Shown in pieces: positions 3,900 to 57,576 of a DNA stretch of 64,000 nucleotides (position 1 is its first letter; every line of letters begins with the position of its first letter). A program made the position numbers and the translations under genes. A model generated the notes under the pieces. That model was given only the letters and a program-made list of their open reading frames with translations. It was not told where the DNA came from and made no database searches. Origin of the DNA: Escherichia virus TH54. The DNA is taken from sequence record MT446420.1. One strand, given 5' to 3'.

Positions 3900-4093
3900 T
3901 ATGCAGTCCTGTAATCAATAATTTCGTCAAGGAACATATCCAATGCTTCCAGAGCATTGTCAACCTTTGCTTCTAATTCTTCACCACCACCAAGCGATGG
4001 GGACCAATACGCAAAGTCATTTAGTGTTTCATCTGCTTCGCGAATCGCTTTTACCAATGCTTTAATTCTATCAGCTTGTTCTAAAGTAATCAT
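3899..4093 (-). CDS. small helical protein, tandem paralog
   Basis: 64 aa, MITLEQADRIKAL; start region DNA nearly identical to the 4278 copy. Confidence 0.45.
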   Translation of the reverse strand: MITLEQADRIKALVKAIREADETLNDFAYWSPSLGGGEELEAKVDNALEALDMFLDEIIDYRTA

Positions 4094-4278
4094 TATTCCA
4101 CCAATGATTCAATGAAGGTATCAAGAGCTGCTTTAGCTTCATCCATTTGTTCTTCACACCGATTTCTGGTGTAATAATCAGATAAATCAGATTCAGATAC
4201 TACAGTAAAGAATCGGACTTCTTTCTTGTAGTTGGCGATAAGTTCTTTAAGTTTTTGAGCTTGTTCTAAAGTAATCAT
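4093..4278 (-). CDS. small helical protein, tandem paralog
   Basis: 61 aa from internal Met MITLEQAQKLKEL; about 30-bp identical DNA repeat at its start. Confidence 0.45.
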   Translation of the reverse strand: MITLEQAQKLKELIANYKKEVRFFTVVSESDLSDYYTRNRCEEQMDEAKAALDTFIESLVE

Positions 4279-8399: not shown

Positions 8400-8453
8400 T
8401 TATCTCCTTTTGTTTGATGGGATAATCATAACTCATTTCAATCTGCTTGTACA

Positions 8454-8455
<2 letters not shown>
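8400..8455 (-). promoter_or_regulatory. early promoter (-35 TGTACA, -10 TATGAT) with GATGGGATA inverted repeat
   Basis: minus-strand TGTACA-N17-TATGAT upstream of regB SD. Confidence 0.5.
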
Positions 8456-9033
<578 letters not shown>

Positions 9034-10883: not shown

Positions 10884-11198
10884 TTACTCTTTAGGGAAAT
10901 CACGCAAAAATGCATCATAAAGTTTATTACCAATGCGACGGAATGCTTTTGCCGCATGAACGTTATCCGGATTTGCAATTTTAATCTGCATTACATGACT
11001 ACCAGCCCATGATTTGGCTTCATCATAATAGCCTTTAATTTCTTTAATAGTCTTACGTTTTCCACCAGGGCCATCAACAGTAATTTTCCACGAACCCGTG
11101 CTCGTTTCACTTGGTGGGGTTAATTGTTCAATCCAGACATAACCACCTTCAACACGTTTTTGGGTAGATTCAGTAATAAATTCTTGATAAGTTTTCAT
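10884..11198 (-). CDS. internal-protein-like, CTS-bearing
   Basis: 105 aa from internal Met MKTYQEFITESTQKR; promoter and SD precede this Met. Confidence 0.55.
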   Translation of the reverse strand: MKTYQEFITESTQKRVEGGYVWIEQLTPPSETSTGSWKITVDGPGGKRKTIKEIKGYYDEAKSWAGSHVMQIKIANPDNVHAAKAFRRIGNKLYDAFLRDFPKE

Positions 11199-11200
11199 TT

Positions 11201-11258
11201 TATATTCCATTGTTTGGTTGATAAAATCATTATACAACCTTTTTAGTTAAGCGTACAC
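11201..11258 (-). promoter_or_regulatory. early promoter (-35 GTGTAC, -10 TATAAT)
   Basis: minus strand TGTACG-N17-TATAAT upstream of ATG 11198. Confidence 0.5.
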
Positions 11259-11663
11259 AGCTTTCCCATAGTATTTGTACCAGGTAGGCTTTTGAGAAAT
11301 TTTCTCATTCAGTCTGGCTTGACTGATTTCAATTGACCAGATTGATGGTTGATAATCATTTTTCCATTCATCAGGAATATCACTTAAATCTTGGGTAGAA
11401 ATATCTTTTATGTTAAACCCTCGCTTTAAACATTCTGCAATAAGTTCTTGATGACGGTTTTTAAGGAACAAAAGTTTATCATAAAAGAAGGTAACATGAC
11501 CAGTCCCTAAAAGAAAAGATGATGGGATTTTAAAGTCAGAAACCTTTTTACCATTTTGCACATGCTTACGAACAGCACCAAACACGCGAGGAAGTTCACG
11601 ATATTCAGCCATAAGATGTTGGTCAGCGAGTTCAGATACCAGGGTTAAATTAATGCGAGTCAT
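11247..11663 (-). CDS. denV: endonuclease V (pyrimidine dimer DNA glycosylase)
   Basis: 138 aa, [34 protein letters not shown]...; near-identical to T4 DenV. Confidence 0.9.
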
Positions 11664-14197: not shown

Positions 14198-14252
14198 TAT
14201 TTTCCTCATTGATTGTGGGACCATTGTGTCATGGTCCCACTTGGATGTACAC
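14198..14252 (-). promoter_or_regulatory. putative early promoter with 10-bp inverted repeat GTGGGACCAT
   Basis: minus strand GTGTACA upstream; perfect inverted repeat GTGGGACCATgacacaATGGTCCCAC. Confidence 0.4.
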
Positions 14253-14254
14253 AA

Positions 14255-15214
14255 TTATTTTTCGAAAGGACGAATTAAATGTTGGTTAGCCTTAAAGCGT
14301 TTAACATAGTCTTCATGACCCAGTGTGTTATACATATTAACCACGTCCTGATAATGTTCCCAGGCATACTCACGGAACCATCCAGAAGTAATGGAGGTGC
14401 AGACTTTTTCCAGCGCAATATGGAAGCTCATGGATGGAGAGATATTGAACTCATTAGGAACCTGCGAACGTTCCAGAGCGAGCACACATGCTTCTTCATA
14501 AACCCCTGCCAGTTTAATAACATCAGGCAGTGCTTCAAATTTTTCACGTGAGGTCATGACTTCTGAATCATCCTTCATATAGAACTTATATGCAGGCTTA
14601 TCAGCAAGCGCCACAGCCTCGTGGATGGAGTCATGGTCAAGGGTATAGATTGTATCATTAAAGAAAGTTTTCTTGCCCACATCTAGTTTAGGGTGACTGT
14701 ATGACAGTGTTTCTGCCTGACGCTGCAGCATGATTTTCTGCAGTTCATCATTAAGAACAACACCCTTATTGCGAAGATAATTAATATGACTCATGGTCTT
14801 CAGGAAGAATGGGTTGTTCTTCAGGTAACGATGAGACAATTTAATCGCCAGACAAATATCAGGAGTCGCCCAATAGAAACCTGTAAGACGGTCTTTCTTA
14901 ATATGATTTTCAGCGTATTTCAAGAGACGATAACTTGAGGTGAAATCTTCGTCTTGAAGCTCACCAGTAATTTCTCGTACGTTAGTCAGGGCACGGACAA
15001 TATAAGCTTCAAAATAGGTTTCTTTGCCATTGTACATACATTTAAAAGCTTGGACATCAGGGTTATCCACAGGAACATGAGCACCGAACATACGTGCTTT
15101 AAAGTGGTTCCAAGAACCCTGGTCAGCGATAAAGTCCCAATCAGAGTTTTCAATTTTCTGACTTTCAATCAGACCAGCGTTATGTAATGCACGAGAACCA
15201 ATAACTAACATCAT
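14255..15214 (-). CDS. hypothetical protein
   Basis: 319 aa from MMLVIGSRALHNAG; GS...SDWDF spacing loosely nucleotidyltransferase-like; GAGGAAA SD. Confidence 0.45.
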   Translation of the reverse strand: MMLVIGSRALHNAGLIESQKIENSDWDFIADQGSWNHFKARMFGAHVPVDNPDVQAFKCMYNGKETYFEAYIVRALTNVREITGELQDEDFTSSYRLLKYAENHIKKDRLTGFYWATPDICLAIKLSHRYLKNNPFFLKTMSHINYLRNKGVVLNDELQKIMLQRQAETLSYSHPKLDVGKKTFFNDTIYTLDHDSIHEAVALADKPAYKFYMKDDSEVMTSREKFEALPDVIKLAGVYEEACVLALERSQVPNEFNISPSMSFHIALEKVCTSITSGWFREYAWEHYQDVVNMYNTLGHEDYVKRFKANQHLIRPFEK

Positions 15215-19218: not shown

Positions 19219-19524
19219 TTAGATTTTGTTTTCCTGTACACCATAATAAAGCTCATCAGACACAATATCCAGGATGCGGCGAACATATTCATCATGGTAT
19301 TGACAGTCAAAATCAAATGCAACAGTAGTTTCCGCTTCACGAGTGAATTTAACTTGCACATTCAGGTGATTAACAACGTTAGTTAATTTATCAGTAAAGA
19401 ACTCTTTTGCTACCGCCTGTTGGACTTGCACTTTGAACTTGGTGTTACGAATCATATTTTCAGCAGATGCGAAATTACCAGTTTTATCAAAGTCAACAAG
19501 CGCCAGGTTGATGATGAATTTCAT
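19219..19524 (-). CDS. hypothetical protein
   Basis: 101-aa ORF downstream of promoter cassette. Confidence 0.45.
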   Translation of the reverse strand: MKFIINLALVDFDKTGNFASAENMIRNTKFKVQVQQAVAKEFFTDKLTNVVNHLNVQVKFTREAETTVAFDFDCQYHDEYVRRILDIVSDELYYGVQENKI

Positions 19525-19527
19525 TTT

Positions 19528-19600
19528 ATTCTCCAGTGTTTTATTTGGTAACTCAGTATGGAATCATTATGCCTTAAAGCAGGGGGCTTGTATACCCCCT
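19528..19600 (-). promoter_or_regulatory. early promoter cassette; -35 in loop of GGGGG/CCCCC hairpin; conserved leader
   Basis: minus strand GGGGGTATACAAGCCCCC hairpin, CATAAT -10, leader GATTCCATACTGAGTTACCAAATAAAACACTGGAG. Confidence 0.55.
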
Positions 19601-19606
19601 TTTTAA

Positions 19607-20038
19607 TTAAATTTCAAATTCTTTGCGGAAGTTGGAAGCATAAGACTGAACTGATGCTTTGTTGAATCCAAACTCACGCACAATCATATCAATAACAGCT
19701 CTACGAGCAGCACCATTAGACATATTGACAGTTTTGAACATATCATAGCATAAATCTTTGTTGCTCATGCCGGAGCGTTTAGGTGCCTTACGTTCAGCTT
19801 TAGGAGTAGGTTTAACTTCTGGTTTAACCTGTCCATCATTCAGACCTTTAAAAATTTTACCTGCCAGCGTTGCCAGTTTAGCAGCTTCGCCACGAGTGAT
19901 ACCAAATACTGCCGGGTTAAATGAAATACCTTCAGCTGTCAGACGTTTGAAGAACATACGTGCTGCGGATTGTGCTTCAGCTTCAGAAGAGTTGTTTAAT
20001 GCCAGTTTAATGTACTTAACCAGTTTTGAAGTTTTCAT
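19607..20038 (-). CDS. hypothetical protein, paralog of 20491-20916
   Basis: 143 aa; C-terminus ...ARRAVIDMIVREFGFNKASVQSYASNFRKEFEI matches paralog. Confidence 0.5.
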   Translation of the reverse strand: MKTSKLVKYIKLALNNSSEAEAQSAARMFFKRLTAEGISFNPAVFGITRGEAAKLATLAGKIFKGLNDGQVKPEVKPTPKAERKAPKRSGMSNKDLCYDMFKTVNMSNGAARRAVIDMIVREFGFNKASVQSYASNFRKEFEI

Positions 20039-20041
20039 TTT

Positions 20042-20110
20042 ATTATCCCGTTTGTTTATTTGTTAACTCAGTATGGAATCATTATGTCTTAGTTAAATTC
20101 CAAAGTACAC
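20042..20110 (-). promoter_or_regulatory. early promoter cassette (-35 GTGTAC, -10 CATAAT) with conserved leader
   Basis: same leader block as 33-100 and 19528-19600. Confidence 0.55.
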
Positions 20111-20111
20111 A

Positions 20112-20408
20112 TTAATTTTCAGAAGTTGGGAAATAAACTTCAAAGTCATACATGTTTACTACCGCAGACGCGATTGCCTGGTACTGCATACCTAAGAAAG
20201 TTTTCTTATTCTTGCGCCACAAGTTAACCATTTCTGTTTTGATGCATGCCAGGGAATAGTTGGATGCAGGATACTGTTTGATGATTGCAACAACTTCTTC
20301 AGAAGCAGTTTCACACAATTCATTCAGTTGAGCTTCAATTTTAGCAGAAATGATTGCTTTGTTTTCTTCTTGAGCTTGGGTAGCGTGCCATGCAGGTGCG
20401 TTAAACAT
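20112..20408 (-). CDS. hypothetical protein
   Basis: 98-aa ORF flanked by two promoter cassettes. Confidence 0.45.
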   Translation of the reverse strand: MFNAPAWHATQAQEENKAIISAKIEAQLNELCETASEEVVAIIKQYPASNYSLACIKTEMVNLWRKNKKTFLGMQYQAIASAVVNMYDFEVYFPTSEN

Positions 20409-20411
20409 TTT

Positions 20412-20478
20412 ATTCTCCAGTGTTTTATTTGTTAACTCAGTATGGGATAATTATACAATATCCCACCTGGAAGTAAAA
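20412..20478 (-). promoter_or_regulatory. early promoter cassette (-35 GTTTTAC, -10 TATAAT) with GGTGGGATA inverted repeat
   Basis: hybrid of the two cassette types: leader block plus GGGATA..TATCCC arms around TATAAT. Confidence 0.55.
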
Positions 20479-20490
20479 CACTTTTCTCAA

Positions 20491-20916
20491 TTATTTTTGA
20501 GCTTTGCGGAAGTTGGAAGCATAAGACTGAACAACAGTCTTTTTGATATCATGGGTGGTAACCAGAACATCAATCAGAGCGCGTCGAGCTGCATTATCAT
20601 TCATATCAATTTCTGCAAATGCCTGGAAGCAAATGTCACGGGCGTTACCCGATTTGGACCGGATTTTTTCTTCTTTAACTTCTTCAATTGGGAATTCAAT
20701 CATTTCAGCTTGGATTAATTCAATGATAGATTCTTTTGACTGTTTGGTGTTTACCTTCAGTTCAGAATTAAGGGACTTGGCGATGGCAACAATCTGGGTT
20801 GAAGTCAGATGAATAAGTGCATCTTCACGAATGCAGATTTCACATACTTCGTCAGCAACCATTTTGTTGGTGATGCGGGTAACAGAGAATGCAGAGGTCA
20901 GGGTCAGAAAGTTCAT
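20491..20916 (-). CDS. hypothetical protein, paralog of 19607-20038
   Basis: 141 aa from MNFLTLT; shares C-terminal ..VVQSYASNFRK and a 30-bp identical DNA block. Confidence 0.5.
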   Translation of the reverse strand: MNFLTLTSAFSVTRITNKMVADEVCEICIREDALIHLTSTQIVAIAKSLNSELKVNTKQSKESIIELIQAEMIEFPIEEVKEEKIRSKSGNARDICFQAFAEIDMNDNAARRALIDVLVTTHDIKKTVVQSYASNFRKAQK

Positions 20917-20919
20917 TTT

Positions 20920-20998
20920 ATTTCTCCAAAGTTTTGTTTGATTCAGTGTGTAACTCAGTATGGAATCATTATGCACCCGGTCAATTCGGATGTACACT
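20920..20998 (-). promoter_or_regulatory. early promoter cassette (-35 GTGTAC, -10 CATAAT) with conserved leader
   Basis: GTGTACAtccgaattgaccgggtgCATAAT plus leader block. Confidence 0.55.
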
Positions 20999-21039
20999 AC
21001 TTTTTGAAGAAAATTTCAAATTTATTCGGGGTATAAAAA

Positions 21040-21078
21040 AGCCCCAACCTTTCGGGAGGGGCTATACCTTGTCGGGGT
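21040..21078 (-). terminator. intrinsic terminator downstream of ORF 21101-21484
   Basis: minus strand AGCCCCtcccgaaaggttGGGGCT followed by TTTTTTAT. Confidence 0.5.
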
Positions 21079-21978: not shown

Positions 21979-22055
21979 TGGTCGGGGTGGTGGGATTCTA
22001 ACCCACAACCTACGGTTTAGAAGACCGTTGCTCTATACAATTGAGCTACACCCCG
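21979..22055 (-). tRNA. tRNA-Arg (anticodon UCU)
   Basis: hand-folded cloverleaf: acceptor CGGGGTG/CACCCCG, D arm GCTC/GAGC, anticodon loop CTTCTAA, T arm GTGGG/CCCAC, 3' ACCA; ends +/- 2 nt. Confidence 0.8.
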
Positions 22056-22057
22056 GG

Positions 22058-22131
22058 TGGCCCCATCCGGACTTGAACCGGAAACCTGCCAGTTATGAGC
22101 CGGATGCTCTAACCAATTGAGCTACAGGGCC
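22058..22131 (-). tRNA. tRNA with CAU anticodon, probably tRNA-Ile (AUA-decoding) rather than Met
   Basis: acceptor GGCCCTG/TGGGGCC with two G-U pairs, anticodon loop CTCATAA, T arm TCCGG/CCGGA; no encoded CCA. Confidence 0.7.
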
Positions 22132-23390: not shown

Positions 23391-23576
23391 TTACTCACCT
23401 TTGGAGATTTTATCCATAACAAAAGAGATTGAACCAATTAAAAATGCAACTACTAAAGAGATTATATTCTCAGAAGTTGAAAGCATATTCAACATAAAGC
23501 CAGCAAACATGCTAAAACCAAAAGCGGTAACAGCAACAAGGGCAGTAACATTTCTAATTAATTCGCAACGTTTCAT
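23391..23576 (-). CDS. small membrane protein, 2 TM
   Basis: 61 aa, hydrophobic (VTALVAVTAFGFSMFAGFML; SLVVAFLIGSISFV). Confidence 0.4.
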   Translation of the reverse strand: MKRCELIRNVTALVAVTAFGFSMFAGFMLNMLSTSENIISLVVAFLIGSISFVMDKISKGE

Positions 23577-23579
23577 TTT

Positions 23580-23633
23580 ATTCTCCTCAGTAGTTGATGG
23601 GATAATTATACGCTATCCCATTCAAATGTACAC
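23580..23633 (-). promoter_or_regulatory. early promoter (-35 GTGTAC, -10 TATAAT inside GGGATAG inverted repeat)
   Basis: minus strand GTGTACAtttgaatgggatagcgTATAATtatccc. Confidence 0.55.
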
Positions 23634-23888
23634 TTATTTTTTAGGGATACGATAGTAACGCATCTCAACATCTTTCTGCTTGTGCCACTTTTTGATAAGG
23701 TCTTCAGAACCTTTAATGGTAACGATGTCATAGCGACCATCATGCGATACTTCAGCACTTAACTGCATGAAGTTGTCTAATGAACGGCGGAATTCTTCAT
23801 TAGAAAAACTGCCACGCGGGGAACCAACATAAGCAAACTCAACTTTTGCATCTGCGGCTTCGTTAATAAATTCTTGATAAGTTTTCAT
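23634..23888 (-). CDS. internal-protein-like, CTS-bearing
   Basis: 84 aa starting MKTYQEFINE. Confidence 0.6.
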   Translation of the reverse strand: MKTYQEFINEAADAKVEFAYVGSPRGSFSNEEFRRSLDNFMQLSAEVSHDGRYDIVTIKGSEDLIKKWHKQKDVEMRYYRIPKK

Positions 23889-23889
23889 T

Positions 23890-23945
23890 AGTAGCTCCAG
23901 TAGTTGATGGGATAATTATACTGCAACTATCCCATCGCGTACATT
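23890..23945 (-). promoter_or_regulatory. early promoter (-35 ATGTAC, -10 TATAAT inside GGGATAG inverted repeat)
   Basis: same architecture as 23580-23633. Confidence 0.5.
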
Positions 23946-57222: not shown

Positions 57223-57504
57223 TCATACCATACCATTTAAATGAACTTCTACCCGGCGCTTGATAAGGTCTCTGAAGTTAACATTGTTTTCTTGAAGTTT
57301 CAACCAGTTACCATTTTTATCTTTAGTGTGAGTAGAATAATTACCATTCCACCAGAAATCAGTGTCATATGCTAAGTTTTCATATTTTTTAACTAGTTTG
57401 TTCAGAGCATTGCCATTAACACCATTTGGGTATTTGTTGACCAATGCAATAACTTCAATTTCCAATTTTTTAAAGGTATTCAGAAGGAAAGTTGCTTTGT
57501 TCAT
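57223..57504 (-). CDS. small hypothetical protein inserted between genes 23 and 24
   Basis: 93 aa from second Met (MNKATFLLNTFKK), which is preceded by GGAG; early promoter cassette upstream. Confidence 0.45.
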   Translation of the reverse strand: MNKATFLLNTFKKLEIEVIALVNKYPNGVNGNALNKLVKKYENLAYDTDFWWNGNYSTHTKDKNGNWLKLQENNVNFRDLIKRRVEVHLNGMV

Positions 57505-57506
57505 TT

Positions 57507-57571
57507 TAGACTCCATTGTTTGGTAACTCAGTATGAAATCATTATGTCTTATCTTAATCGGGTTGTAAACA
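57507..57571 (-). promoter_or_regulatory. early promoter cassette (-35 GTTTAC, -10 CATAAT) with conserved leader, inside late module
   Basis: same leader block as cassettes at 33-100 and 19.5-21 kb. Confidence 0.55.
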
Positions 57572-57576
57572 ACTTT

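Follow-up and report, generated by a model that had tools for sequence, protein, structure and literature searches.

Recombination between repeated early promoter cassettes, and an old gene pair with a short identical coding block, in a variable region of a Gaprivervirus phage

The DNA analysed here, a stretch of 64 kb referred to below as the window, holds a hyperplastic early-gene block between the annotated neighbours e.6 on one side and tRNA genes on the other, in which repeated promoter cassettes mediate the gain and loss of small genes, and in which two genes, A and B, carry the same 31-bp block in their coding sequences (Table 1). With a probability of roughly 70%, we read this region as an early-gene block shuffled by cassette recombination, containing A and B as an old pair, whose identical block arose from an invariant helix together with a short gene conversion. 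The phage belongs to Gaprivervirus, the T4-like phages of the VR7/SP18 type, with Gaprivervirus genomes matching it at 97% DNA identity. The process is already known in T4-like phages and the mechanism is not of a new kind.

Table 1. Features of the variable region, with positions counted in the window.
Feature	Position	Strand	Description
101-aa gene (g101)	19219-19524		PeSL-type cassette directly upstream
Cassette of the 101-aa gene	19519-19598	-	-35 TATACA, 17-nt spacer, -10 CATAAT
Gene A	19607-20038	-	143 aa, phrog_18416
Shared C-terminal domain of A	19610-19762	-	Residues 93-143, from BLASTP alignment and model
Block copy 1	19621-19651	-	VQSYASNFRK plus first base of the next codon; helix 3 of the C-terminal domain of A
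Cassette of A	20034-20112	-	-35-like GTGTAC, 18-nt spacer, -10 CATAAT
Gene M	20112-20408	-	98 aa, phrog_27242; PHROG family differs from those of A and B
Cassette of M	20404-20482	-	-35 TTTACT, 16-nt spacer, -10 TATAAT
Gene B	20491-20916	-	141 aa, phrog_9997 (E=2.7e-71)
Shared C-terminal domain of B	20494-20643	-	Residues 92-141
Block copy 2	20502-20532	-	Same VQSYASNFRK peptide; helix 3 of the C-terminal domain of B
Cassette of B	20912-21000	-	-35 TGTACA, 17-nt spacer, -10 CATAAT, 5'UTR core CCATACTGAGTTAC, GGAG then ATG
Intrinsic-terminator-like hairpin and T-run	21042-21057	-	End of the 127-aa gene, just before the cassette of B
127-aa gene (g127)	Upstream of the cassette of B		Hairpin 21042-21057 at gene end

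The cassette, about 75 nt long, is found in six strong copies in the 64 kb, four of which lie within 1.5 kb, each heading a small gene of unknown function. These four copies immediately precede the 101-aa gene, A, M, and B, so that the proposal of an earlier note on this DNA, by which A, M, and B each have a promoter cassette of their own, is borne out. Their anatomy comprises an AT-rich stretch, a -35/-10 promoter of the T4 early type, a stem-loop, a conserved 5'UTR, and a Shine-Dalgarno sequence with ATG. The position of the stem varies: it lies between -35 and -10 in the cassette of B, which also has a terminator upstream; it encloses the -10 of M in a hairpin GGGATA...TATCCC (fold z-score -2.6); it surrounds the -10 of A as GGAAT...ATTCC; and it covers the -35 of the 101-aa gene as a GGGGG-N8-CCCCC hairpin (19581-19600). 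The fold z-scores of the cassettes are modest, ranging from -1.3 to -2.6. In three cassettes the -10 is CATAAT and not TATAAT. A promoter scan picked up the hexamers of the cassettes of B, M, and the 101-aa gene; the GTGTAC-18-CATAAT of A was spotted by eye, its -35 falling below the scan threshold. Judged by these elements, the cassettes are probably active as promoters, and each small gene would form its own transcription unit headed by one of them.

Promoter-early stem-loop regulatory cassettes, or PeSLs, have been described in the T4-type phages RB49/phi1, PST/T4, and nt-1/KVP40 (Arbiol et al. 2010, PMC2839356; Comeau et al. 2014, PMC4122927). Their motif combines an AT-rich stretch with a sigma70-like early promoter and SD-ATG, and its stem-loop covers either the -35 or the -10 or lies between them; they are concentrated in hyperplastic regions ahead of ORFans, and the indel breakpoints of close relatives lie inside the motif (PMC2839356, PMC4122927). 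The cassettes of our phage share this anatomy, this placement, and these breakpoints. By consensus match, an AT-rich stretch leads into a sigma70-like early promoter, whose -35 and -10 lie about 17 nt apart; a stem-loop falls inside each promoter or adjoins it; the cassettes are repeated, intergenic, and clustered in the hyperplastic region upstream of ORFans; and the breakpoints of indels or replacements between close relatives fall inside them. On these sequence features they are of the published PeSL type, an early promoter combined with a stem-loop. Unlike the described PeSLs, they show a -35 of G(T/A)(G/T)TAC, a -10 of (C/T)ATAAT, and a 5'UTR core, CCATACTGAGTTA(A/C)CAAATAAA, that is conserved to an unusual degree. 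The PeSL class is also marked by demonstrated promoter and terminator activity and by mini-circles. Neither of the two papers mentions cassettes of VR7, SP18 or the JS98 type (PMC2839356, PMC4122927). The same cassette core is also present in Morganella phage MP1 and in several metagenomic T4-like phages.

Evidence for the role of the cassettes comes from gene M, which is unrelated to A and B, as the earlier note had also stated, and behaves as a presence/absence module. It was found only in Gaprivervirus records and always in the same place, between A and B; 11 of the 20 related genomes sampled have it, scattered across the haplotypes of B. Its protein is 99-100% conserved at a nucleotide diversity of 2.5%; we rejected the idea that M swept recently as a mobile module, its diversity being equal to that of its neighbours. 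Genomes without M carry hybrid cassettes, in which the promoter half comes from the cassette of M and the 5'UTR half from that of A, with the crossover inside the shared cassette core and at two distinct points. In UPEC01, SP18, VR26, and RZ the M-type promoter is joined to an A-type UTR, while in EAWsc9 the M-type UTR reaches the ATG of A; since these crossovers differ, at least two independent events have taken place. Such hybrids with two crossover points show directly that cassettes recombine with each other, and account for why only some genomes have M between A and B. Module content as a whole is combinatorial over the 20 genomes, as four more modules (g127, g184, g142, and g101) are likewise present in some and absent from others; in relatives, the insertion that brings the 184-aa gene has its junction at 21032-21044. 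Homologous recombination between cassettes of about 50-75 nt would delete, re-insert, and reorder these modules. Modular insertion or duplication via the cassettes, as suggested earlier, therefore holds for gain and loss, documented by the hybrid cassettes, and not for A and B, which are not a recent cassette-mediated duplication.

The two genes can be aligned only across their C-terminal 71 aa (44% identity, E=1e-16, BLASTP), and their N-terminal halves are unrelated to each other, so that the description of A and B as paralogues applies to the C-terminal domain and not to the remainder. According to AlphaFold2, a linker would join the N-terminal beta/alpha domain of B (pLDDT 85) to its C-terminal three-helix domain, and A (pLDDT 78) would have a helical domain at its N-terminus, a disordered linker rich in Lys, Pro, and Ala (residues 71-87), and a C-terminal three-helix domain as in B, with helices predicted at residues 93-101, 109-123, and 127-141. 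The reading frame and start codon of B are backed by homologues of equal length. The shared domain, about 50-70 aa long, has no third copy that we could find within the 64-kb window; in related genomes a third copy lies elsewhere, near the gene 52 homologue, as a stand-alone protein of 70 aa. Its family is small: 1.8 billion representative proteins yielded about 13 clusters at 50% identity. VR7 has an A without the C-terminal domain and in Yersinia phage P8 B is split, which means that neither gene is essential.

Full-length orthologues of both A and B are known in other phages at 51-63% identity, and the two genes are adjacent in the T4-like L028, in the 45-kb phages L008, L009, and Erwinia RF1, and, in reversed order, in Morganella MP1. 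A and B are an old, co-travelling gene pair. A different history, in which they arose by a recent cassette-mediated tandem duplication and the block is its last undiverged remnant, would agree with the two block copies being direct repeats 881 bp apart and with a cassette ahead of each gene. It is nevertheless very improbable, given the unrelated N-terminal halves, the randomised synonymous sites of a shared domain only 44% identical, and the orthologues of each full-length gene, some of them in 45-kb phages from which the cassette core is absent; distinct A-type and distinct B-type orthologues occur in distant lineages, which refutes it. The duplication via cassettes raised in the earlier note thus fails on the neighbouring A and B of other T4-like lineages and of unrelated 45-kb phages without the cassette core, and so does the block as its remnant, its identity being an island in a domain with randomised-looking synonymous sites.

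The block itself, CTTTGCGGAAGTTGGAAGCATAAGACTGAAC, is real: it is 31 bp long and occurs exactly twice in the window, with no further match there even when up to three mismatches are allowed and 0 expected by chance. Its peptide is invariant or nearly so throughout the family, as VQSY(A/V)SN(F/Y)R(K/R). That the repeat might be an artefact of assembly or sequencing, a caveat attached to it earlier, has practically no probability left, being refuted by the presence of the block in both genes of 19 independently sequenced relatives from different laboratories and countries, with 0-2 differences between the copies. Deletion chimeras arising from recombination between the two 31-bp blocks were not seen among phage records; the sole genome with a single copy, VR7, is accounted for by a different deletion.

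Within these 19 genomes, exact identity of 31/31 between A and B is the minority state, found in 3, while 16 show one or two differences. In B, 3/31 sites of the block and 40/395 sites outside it are segregating; in A the figures are 1/31 and 34/437. With polymorphism at the level of the remaining gene, the block gives no indication of a function at the DNA level, and its synonymous sites have probably drifted neutrally since conversion. A functional nucleotide element, for instance a structured RNA, a site of protein binding or cleavage or an antisense target, kept identical by selection on DNA or RNA, would be in line with the identity of all 10 codons (P about 7e-5), including the non-preferred TCC (14% usage) and CGC (18%), with the retention of many of the same codons by B orthologues of distant lineages, and with a scanned hairpin (20523-20541) overlapping the block copy of B. 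We reject such an element as very unlikely, as the polymorphism within the genus and the differences between A and B in most genomes speak against it, six other lineages with both genes show 4-8 differences between the blocks over 30 sites, and no Rfam match was obtained. The hairpin was dismissed as the element: it is present only in B, reads as a terminator on the antisense strand, and is weakened by a synonymous TCT-to-TCA variant in 13 of 20 genomes.

The block, identical at 31/31, contrasts with the flanking domain, identical at about 55-60%. The same codon is used at 10/10 residues of the block and at 5/12 identical residues elsewhere in the domain, which gives an identity tract with divergent flanks and an excess of synonymous identity over the rest of the alignment. 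This identity is lineage-specific: A and B agree at 28-30 of 30 bases in the 19 Gaprivervirus genomes, and at 22, 22, 23, 24, 25, and 26 of 30 in six other lineages with both paralogues. According to outgroup states, the Gaprivervirus ancestor had 31/31. Codon preference acting on an invariant peptide could, together with chance, bring about this identity without any conversion, since random codon draws already yield about 22.5/30 identical bases and the A lineage of L032 is 28/30 identical to the block. We regard this as unlikely, though less so than a functional element, since under the phage's own codon usage 30/30 has a probability of 7e-5 and at least 28/30 one of 0.007, since identical residues elsewhere in the domain share their codon much less often, and since the other six lineages stay at 22-26/30.

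Because those lineages reach only 22-26/30 and all 10 codons are identical, a short gene conversion before the ancestor of the genus is the likely source of the identity. Two causes would then have acted together, the absolute amino-acid conservation of the helix VQSYASNFRK and a short-tract conversion between nearby copies shortly before the common ancestor of Gaprivervirus. The direction from B to A is favoured: the block codons TCC and CGC are typical of B orthologues (L028, L008, and L009), and most A orthologues have TCT and CGT. An exception is the A orthologue of L032, which has TCC and CGC, shares the codon set GCT TCC ... CGC, and leaves both direction and date of the conversion uncertain, with shared ancestral codons keeping a small probability. 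A recent re-conversion in the window's own lineage was also considered and is not separable from ordinary allelic recombination among B alleles.

For a conversion, a tract of about 31 bp is unusually short, and its flanks diverge sharply. The 'His boxes' of T-even tail-fibre genes (gp37/gp38) are short conserved coding motifs in divergent genes and serve as substrates for homologous exchange. The block of A and B resembles them as a short, highly conserved coding motif within otherwise divergent phage genes, and differs in that the exchange would have occurred between two paralogues of one genome, over a single 31-bp tract and with no domain swap.

In the models of both proteins the C-terminal domain forms a three-helix bundle in which helix 2, a turn, and a putative recognition helix 3 follow each other as in homeodomain-like helix-turn-helix domains. 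Three-helix bundles are common. The best PDB sequence match of the domain profile was the ATBF1 homeodomain (E=0.046), with KRVVQSYASN aligned to KRVVQVWFQN, and hhalign against five homeodomains retained this register at P=0.003 and a probability of only 10%. Pfam gave no match, nor did Foldseek with the whole B model against the PDB at an E-value below 1. The domain may tentatively be called homeodomain-like, and DNA binding, suggested by this modelled bundle, might be its activity. Helix 3 has polar or basic invariant residues (Q, S, Y, S, N, R, and K), from which we infer that sequence-specific DNA binding would occur through this helix; VQSYASNFRK, the invariant signature of the small phage-only family, is probably a nucleic-acid recognition helix. 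Unlike the three-helix DNA-binding domains of homeodomain and BEN proteins, the A/B domain lacks both an N-terminal arm and the Trp48/Phe49 core pair, and it belongs to phage proteins of about 140 aa with an unrelated N-terminal domain, the sequence similarity being marginal.

The A-type N-terminus (KYINLALNNSSEGEA...) resembles the N-terminal helical motif of DUF2786 (PF10979). One homologue reached E=0.043 and 14.2 bits, below the Pfam cut-off of 23.9, and the A of the window gave no DUF2786 match in Pfam, so that this likeness is a lead and not a membership. Their different N-terminal domains would give A and B different partners or effects early in infection. It is conceivable, if rather doubtful, that A, B, and the stand-alone 70-aa copy make up a very rare family of early proteins, undescribed so far and confined to phages, whose homeodomain-like DNA- or RNA-binding domain has a single invariant helix for recognition; the different N-terminal effector domains of A and B would be aimed at the same nucleic-acid target in host take-over, and occasional conversion would be a by-product of the shared helix.

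For the T4-like phages, the locus provides a natural example, resolved to the base, of cassette recombination removing a gene, and it extends the PeSL model to Gaprivervirus and to the lineages with the same cassette core, namely Morganella phage MP1 and metagenomic T4-like phages. A and B, for their part, define a small uncharacterised family of early phage proteins, with a conserved two-gene arrangement and a helix that is likely to bind nucleic acid.

The region holds two small paralogous genes, A and B, separated by an unrelated gene M (see the table), and shares 95-97% identity with about 38 genomes of Gaprivervirus, the VR7/SP18 group of T4-like phages with Escherichia, Shigella, and Yersinia as hosts. 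In annotated relatives it sits between e.6 and the tRNA cluster; in T4-like genomes, the stretch from e.6 to the tRNAs is variable (“hyperplastic”). In alignment, A and B match only in the C-terminal 71 residues (44% identity, E=1e-16), and the N-terminal halves are unrelated; in the PHROG search, their two families cross-hit via the C-terminus, and a third family, phrog_17275, consists of the C-terminal domain alone. An earlier note had proposed, from the sequence alone, the paralogy and an unrelated gene in between, and its description of the region as a whole was correct; the finding is real and is accounted for by established mechanisms. An Rfam match to “Plastid-ycf2” (22057-22131, plus strand, antisense to tRNA-Met) scored 42 bits, below the gathering score of 65.7, and is almost certainly spurious.

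Features of the A/B region and of the comparison loci (L numbers; related phages or metagenomic contigs)
Feature	Position	Strand	Details
Gene B	20491-20916	minus	141 aa, phrog_9997
Gene M	20112-20408	minus	98 aa, PHROG family unrelated to A/B
Gene A	19607-20038	minus	143 aa, phrog_18416
101-aa gene	19219-19524	minus	
tRNA-Arg + tRNA-Met	21979-22131		
Terminator-like hairpin with T-run	21042-21057		precedes B's cassette
Two further strong cassette copies	24-102 and 57499-57574	minus	distant from cluster
Weaker early-promoter-like matches	23572-23634, 8405-8457, 11194-11261, 14214-14255		
Stem-loop, 101-aa gene's cassette			GGGGG-N8-CCCCC, over -35
Stem-loop, M's cassette			GGGATA...TATCCC, around -10
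Stem-loop, A's cassette			GGAAT...ATTCC, around -10
Stem-loop, B's cassette			between -35 and -10
Other T4-like lineage	L028		order B then A
45-kb phages including Erwinia phage RF1	L008, L009, L031		B, gap or another gene, A
Morganella phage MP1	L012		A, 89-aa gene, B
Stand-alone domain copy	L013-L015, ~3962-4189		motif VQSYASNYMK, just downstream of gene 52 (topoisomerase subunit) homologue

The identical DNA noticed in A and B is a 31-nt string, CTTTGCGGAAGTTGGAAGCATAAGACTGAAC, with exactly two occurrences in the window (19621-19651 and 20502-20532), where no other match with up to three mismatches was found and none is expected by chance. Its product is VQSYASNFRK, and no other segment of the family is as strongly conserved. 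Amino-acid conservation alone does not account for the DNA identity: with codons drawn at the window's own usage, ten identical codons at ten identical residues have a probability of 7e-5, and elsewhere in the domain the same codon is found at only 5 of 12 identical residues, as in AARRA, for which one gene has GCT GCT CGT AGA GCT and the other GCA GCT CGA CGC GCT. Under the same usage, about 22.5 of 30 identical bases are expected, and at least 28 have a probability of 0.007. In six other lineages with both genes, the A and B blocks agree at 22, 22, 23, 24, 25, and 26 of 30 bases, figures that match or slightly exceed the expected one; in 19 Gaprivervirus genomes, they agree at 28-30. Presence of the block in 19 independent genomes excludes an assembly artefact, a caveat raised in the earlier note.

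Within the genus, all changes in the block are synonymous, B's block occurs as four haplotypes, and segregating sites number 3/31 in the block versus 40/395 in the rest of the gene for B, and 1/31 versus 34/437 for A. A function of the block at the nucleotide level is not supported, given this variation as in the rest of the gene and an Rfam search without a match at the block; the only local hairpin, at 20523-20541, was likewise rejected as a functional element, since A lacks it, it lies on the antisense strand, and a common variant disrupts it. At the polymorphic block sites, the “reference” base is the one seen in outgroup sequences of both genes, so the Gaprivervirus ancestor most likely had 31/31 identity, retained by the window, P479, and DK13, with the other 16 genomes one or two bases off. 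The simplest account of the block would be a single short gene conversion between the neighbouring copies of A and B, not long before the Gaprivervirus ancestor, with neutral drift since then; short paralogue conversion at a conserved motif is an already known kind of event. The block's unusual codons, TCC and CGC, match those used by B orthologues from three other lineages, most A orthologues having TCT and CGT, which would favour B as the donor, although one A orthologue (locus L032) also carries TCC and CGC.

As the earlier note had seen, A, M, and B each have their own cassette, a repeat of about 75 nt directly upstream; a fourth copy directly precedes the 101-aa gene. On the minus strand it comprises an AT-rich stretch, a T4-early-type -35 (GTGTAC, GTATAC, or TTTTAC), a variable spacer of 16-18 nt, a -10 (CATAAT or TATAAT), a strongly conserved leader, GATTCCATACTGAGTTA(A/C)CAAATAAA, a Shine-Dalgarno sequence (GGAG or GGGA), and AATAAAATG. 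The promoter scan detected three of the four, the -35 of A's cassette falling under its threshold, and every one has a stem-loop. Strong copies number only six in the 64-kb window, four of them in the A/B cluster. An exact 24-nt direct repeat, CAGTAGTTGATGGGATAATTATAC (plus strand; 23588-23611 and 23898-23921), represents a second cassette subtype, in which a GGGATA/TATCCC hairpin encloses the -10 TATAAT; two more small genes on the minus strand lie downstream of it. The ribosome-binding sites (regions 20409-20425, 19525-19541, and 20917-20935) read GGAG in three of the four cassettes and GGGA in A's. Since the T4 endoribonuclease RegB targets GGAG in early leaders, A might fall outside RegB control. 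Promoter-early stem-loops (PeSLs) have been described in RB49/phi1 (PMC2839356) and later in PST/T4 and nt-1/KVP40 (PMC4122927), and the anatomy of our cassettes is the same, down to several stem-loop placements; VR7-, SP18-, and JS98-type cassettes are not mentioned in these two papers. With all defining features testable in silico present, the cassettes behave as a PeSL system, their promoter and terminator functions and any mini-circle formation being putative.

Among 20 Gaprivervirus loci compared for module content, 11 carry M and 9 lack it; the 127-aa, 184-aa, 132-aa, and 101-aa neighbours vary too, in all combinations, and B and A are constant except for a truncated A in VR7. Against M-less genomes, the window aligns in two pieces overlapping by 50 nt, exactly the cassette repeat, and the B-to-A intergenic sequence of those genomes is a hybrid cassette, direct evidence of shuffling through the cassettes, which upholds the proposed modular insertion. 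In UPEC01, SP18, VR26, and RZ, the hybrid begins with the M promoter half (GTTTTAC...GGGATA..TATAATTATCCC) and finishes with the A leader half (CAAACGGGATAATAAAATG), while EAWsc9 retains the M leader (ACACTGGAGAATAAAATG) up to the A start codon; two crossover points imply at least two independent events. M shows 2.5% nucleotide diversity, equal to its neighbours, ruling out a recent invader, and its protein is 99-100% conserved; M is thus an old, selected gene, repeatedly lost or exchanged. The 184-aa gene, annotated as holin or as amidase-6 domain protein, is an insertion in MN01, UPEC01, VR7, and other relatives, placed between B and the 127-aa gene, with its junction at window 21032-21057, in the region of the terminator hairpin that immediately precedes B's cassette.

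The earlier suggestion of a duplication via the cassettes did not hold for a recent event. Separate full-length homologues occur in metagenomes (B at 51-60% identity, A at 51-63%), and A and B are adjacent in other phage lineages; the pair is thus old, its members travel together, and it is not a recent product of the window's cassettes. The core CCATACTGAGTTAMC precedes A, B, and the intervening genes in MP1 and occurs in three metagenomic T4-like contigs, but is absent from the 45-kb phages carrying A and B. The pair's presence in these non-T4-like phages implies that the two genes moved as a module between unrelated types of phage by horizontal transfer. When 1.84 billion representative proteins were searched exhaustively with a profile, only 13 convincing clusters emerged (A-type, B-type, domain-only, and one type with a third kind of N-terminus), so the family is very small and restricted to phages. 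Gaprivervirus genomes (VR26, VR25, and VR20) also carry, elsewhere, the domain on its own (~71-75 aa) as a third copy, apparently behind the same cassette core; the window has no such copy.

Neither protein seems indispensable: in VR7 (L004, 984-1190), A is cut down to its first 63 codons (annotated ORF145c) and so lacks the C-terminal domain, the deletion having also taken the 101-aa gene and e.6, and in Yersinia phage vB_YenM_P8 (L017, 1588-2073) B is annotated as two ORFs, reflecting a frameshift or sequencing error. In AlphaFold2 models (pLDDT 85 for B, 78 for A), the N-terminal domains are unrelated, a disordered linker follows, and both proteins end in the same three-helix bundle, with the block as helix 3. 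A's linker is Lys/Pro/Ala-rich, which probably explains the “H15 domain-containing” annotation of A in EAWsc9. Genomes differ in how many copies this linker (~19780-19810) has of a 12-nt unit, AAAGCTGAACCA, that codes for KAEP/PKAE: compared with most relatives, the window, TH40, and ECML-359 have one fewer and EAWsc9 two more. Independently of the models, the best PDB match of the domain's sequence profile was the ATBF1 homeodomain (2da3, E=0.046), with KRVVQSYASN aligned to KRVVQVWFQN of homeodomain helix 3 and the invariant Asn on Asn51; hhalign against five classical homeodomains returned the same register at a probability of only 10%, and Foldseek and Pfam gave nothing usable for A/B. The models and the profile match suggest, with modest confidence, that the domain is homeodomain-like and binds nucleic acid, with the invariant motif as its recognition helix, this link to homeodomain-like folds being a lead, not membership. 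On this reading, the two proteins would deliver distinct N-terminal domains to one common target in early infection.
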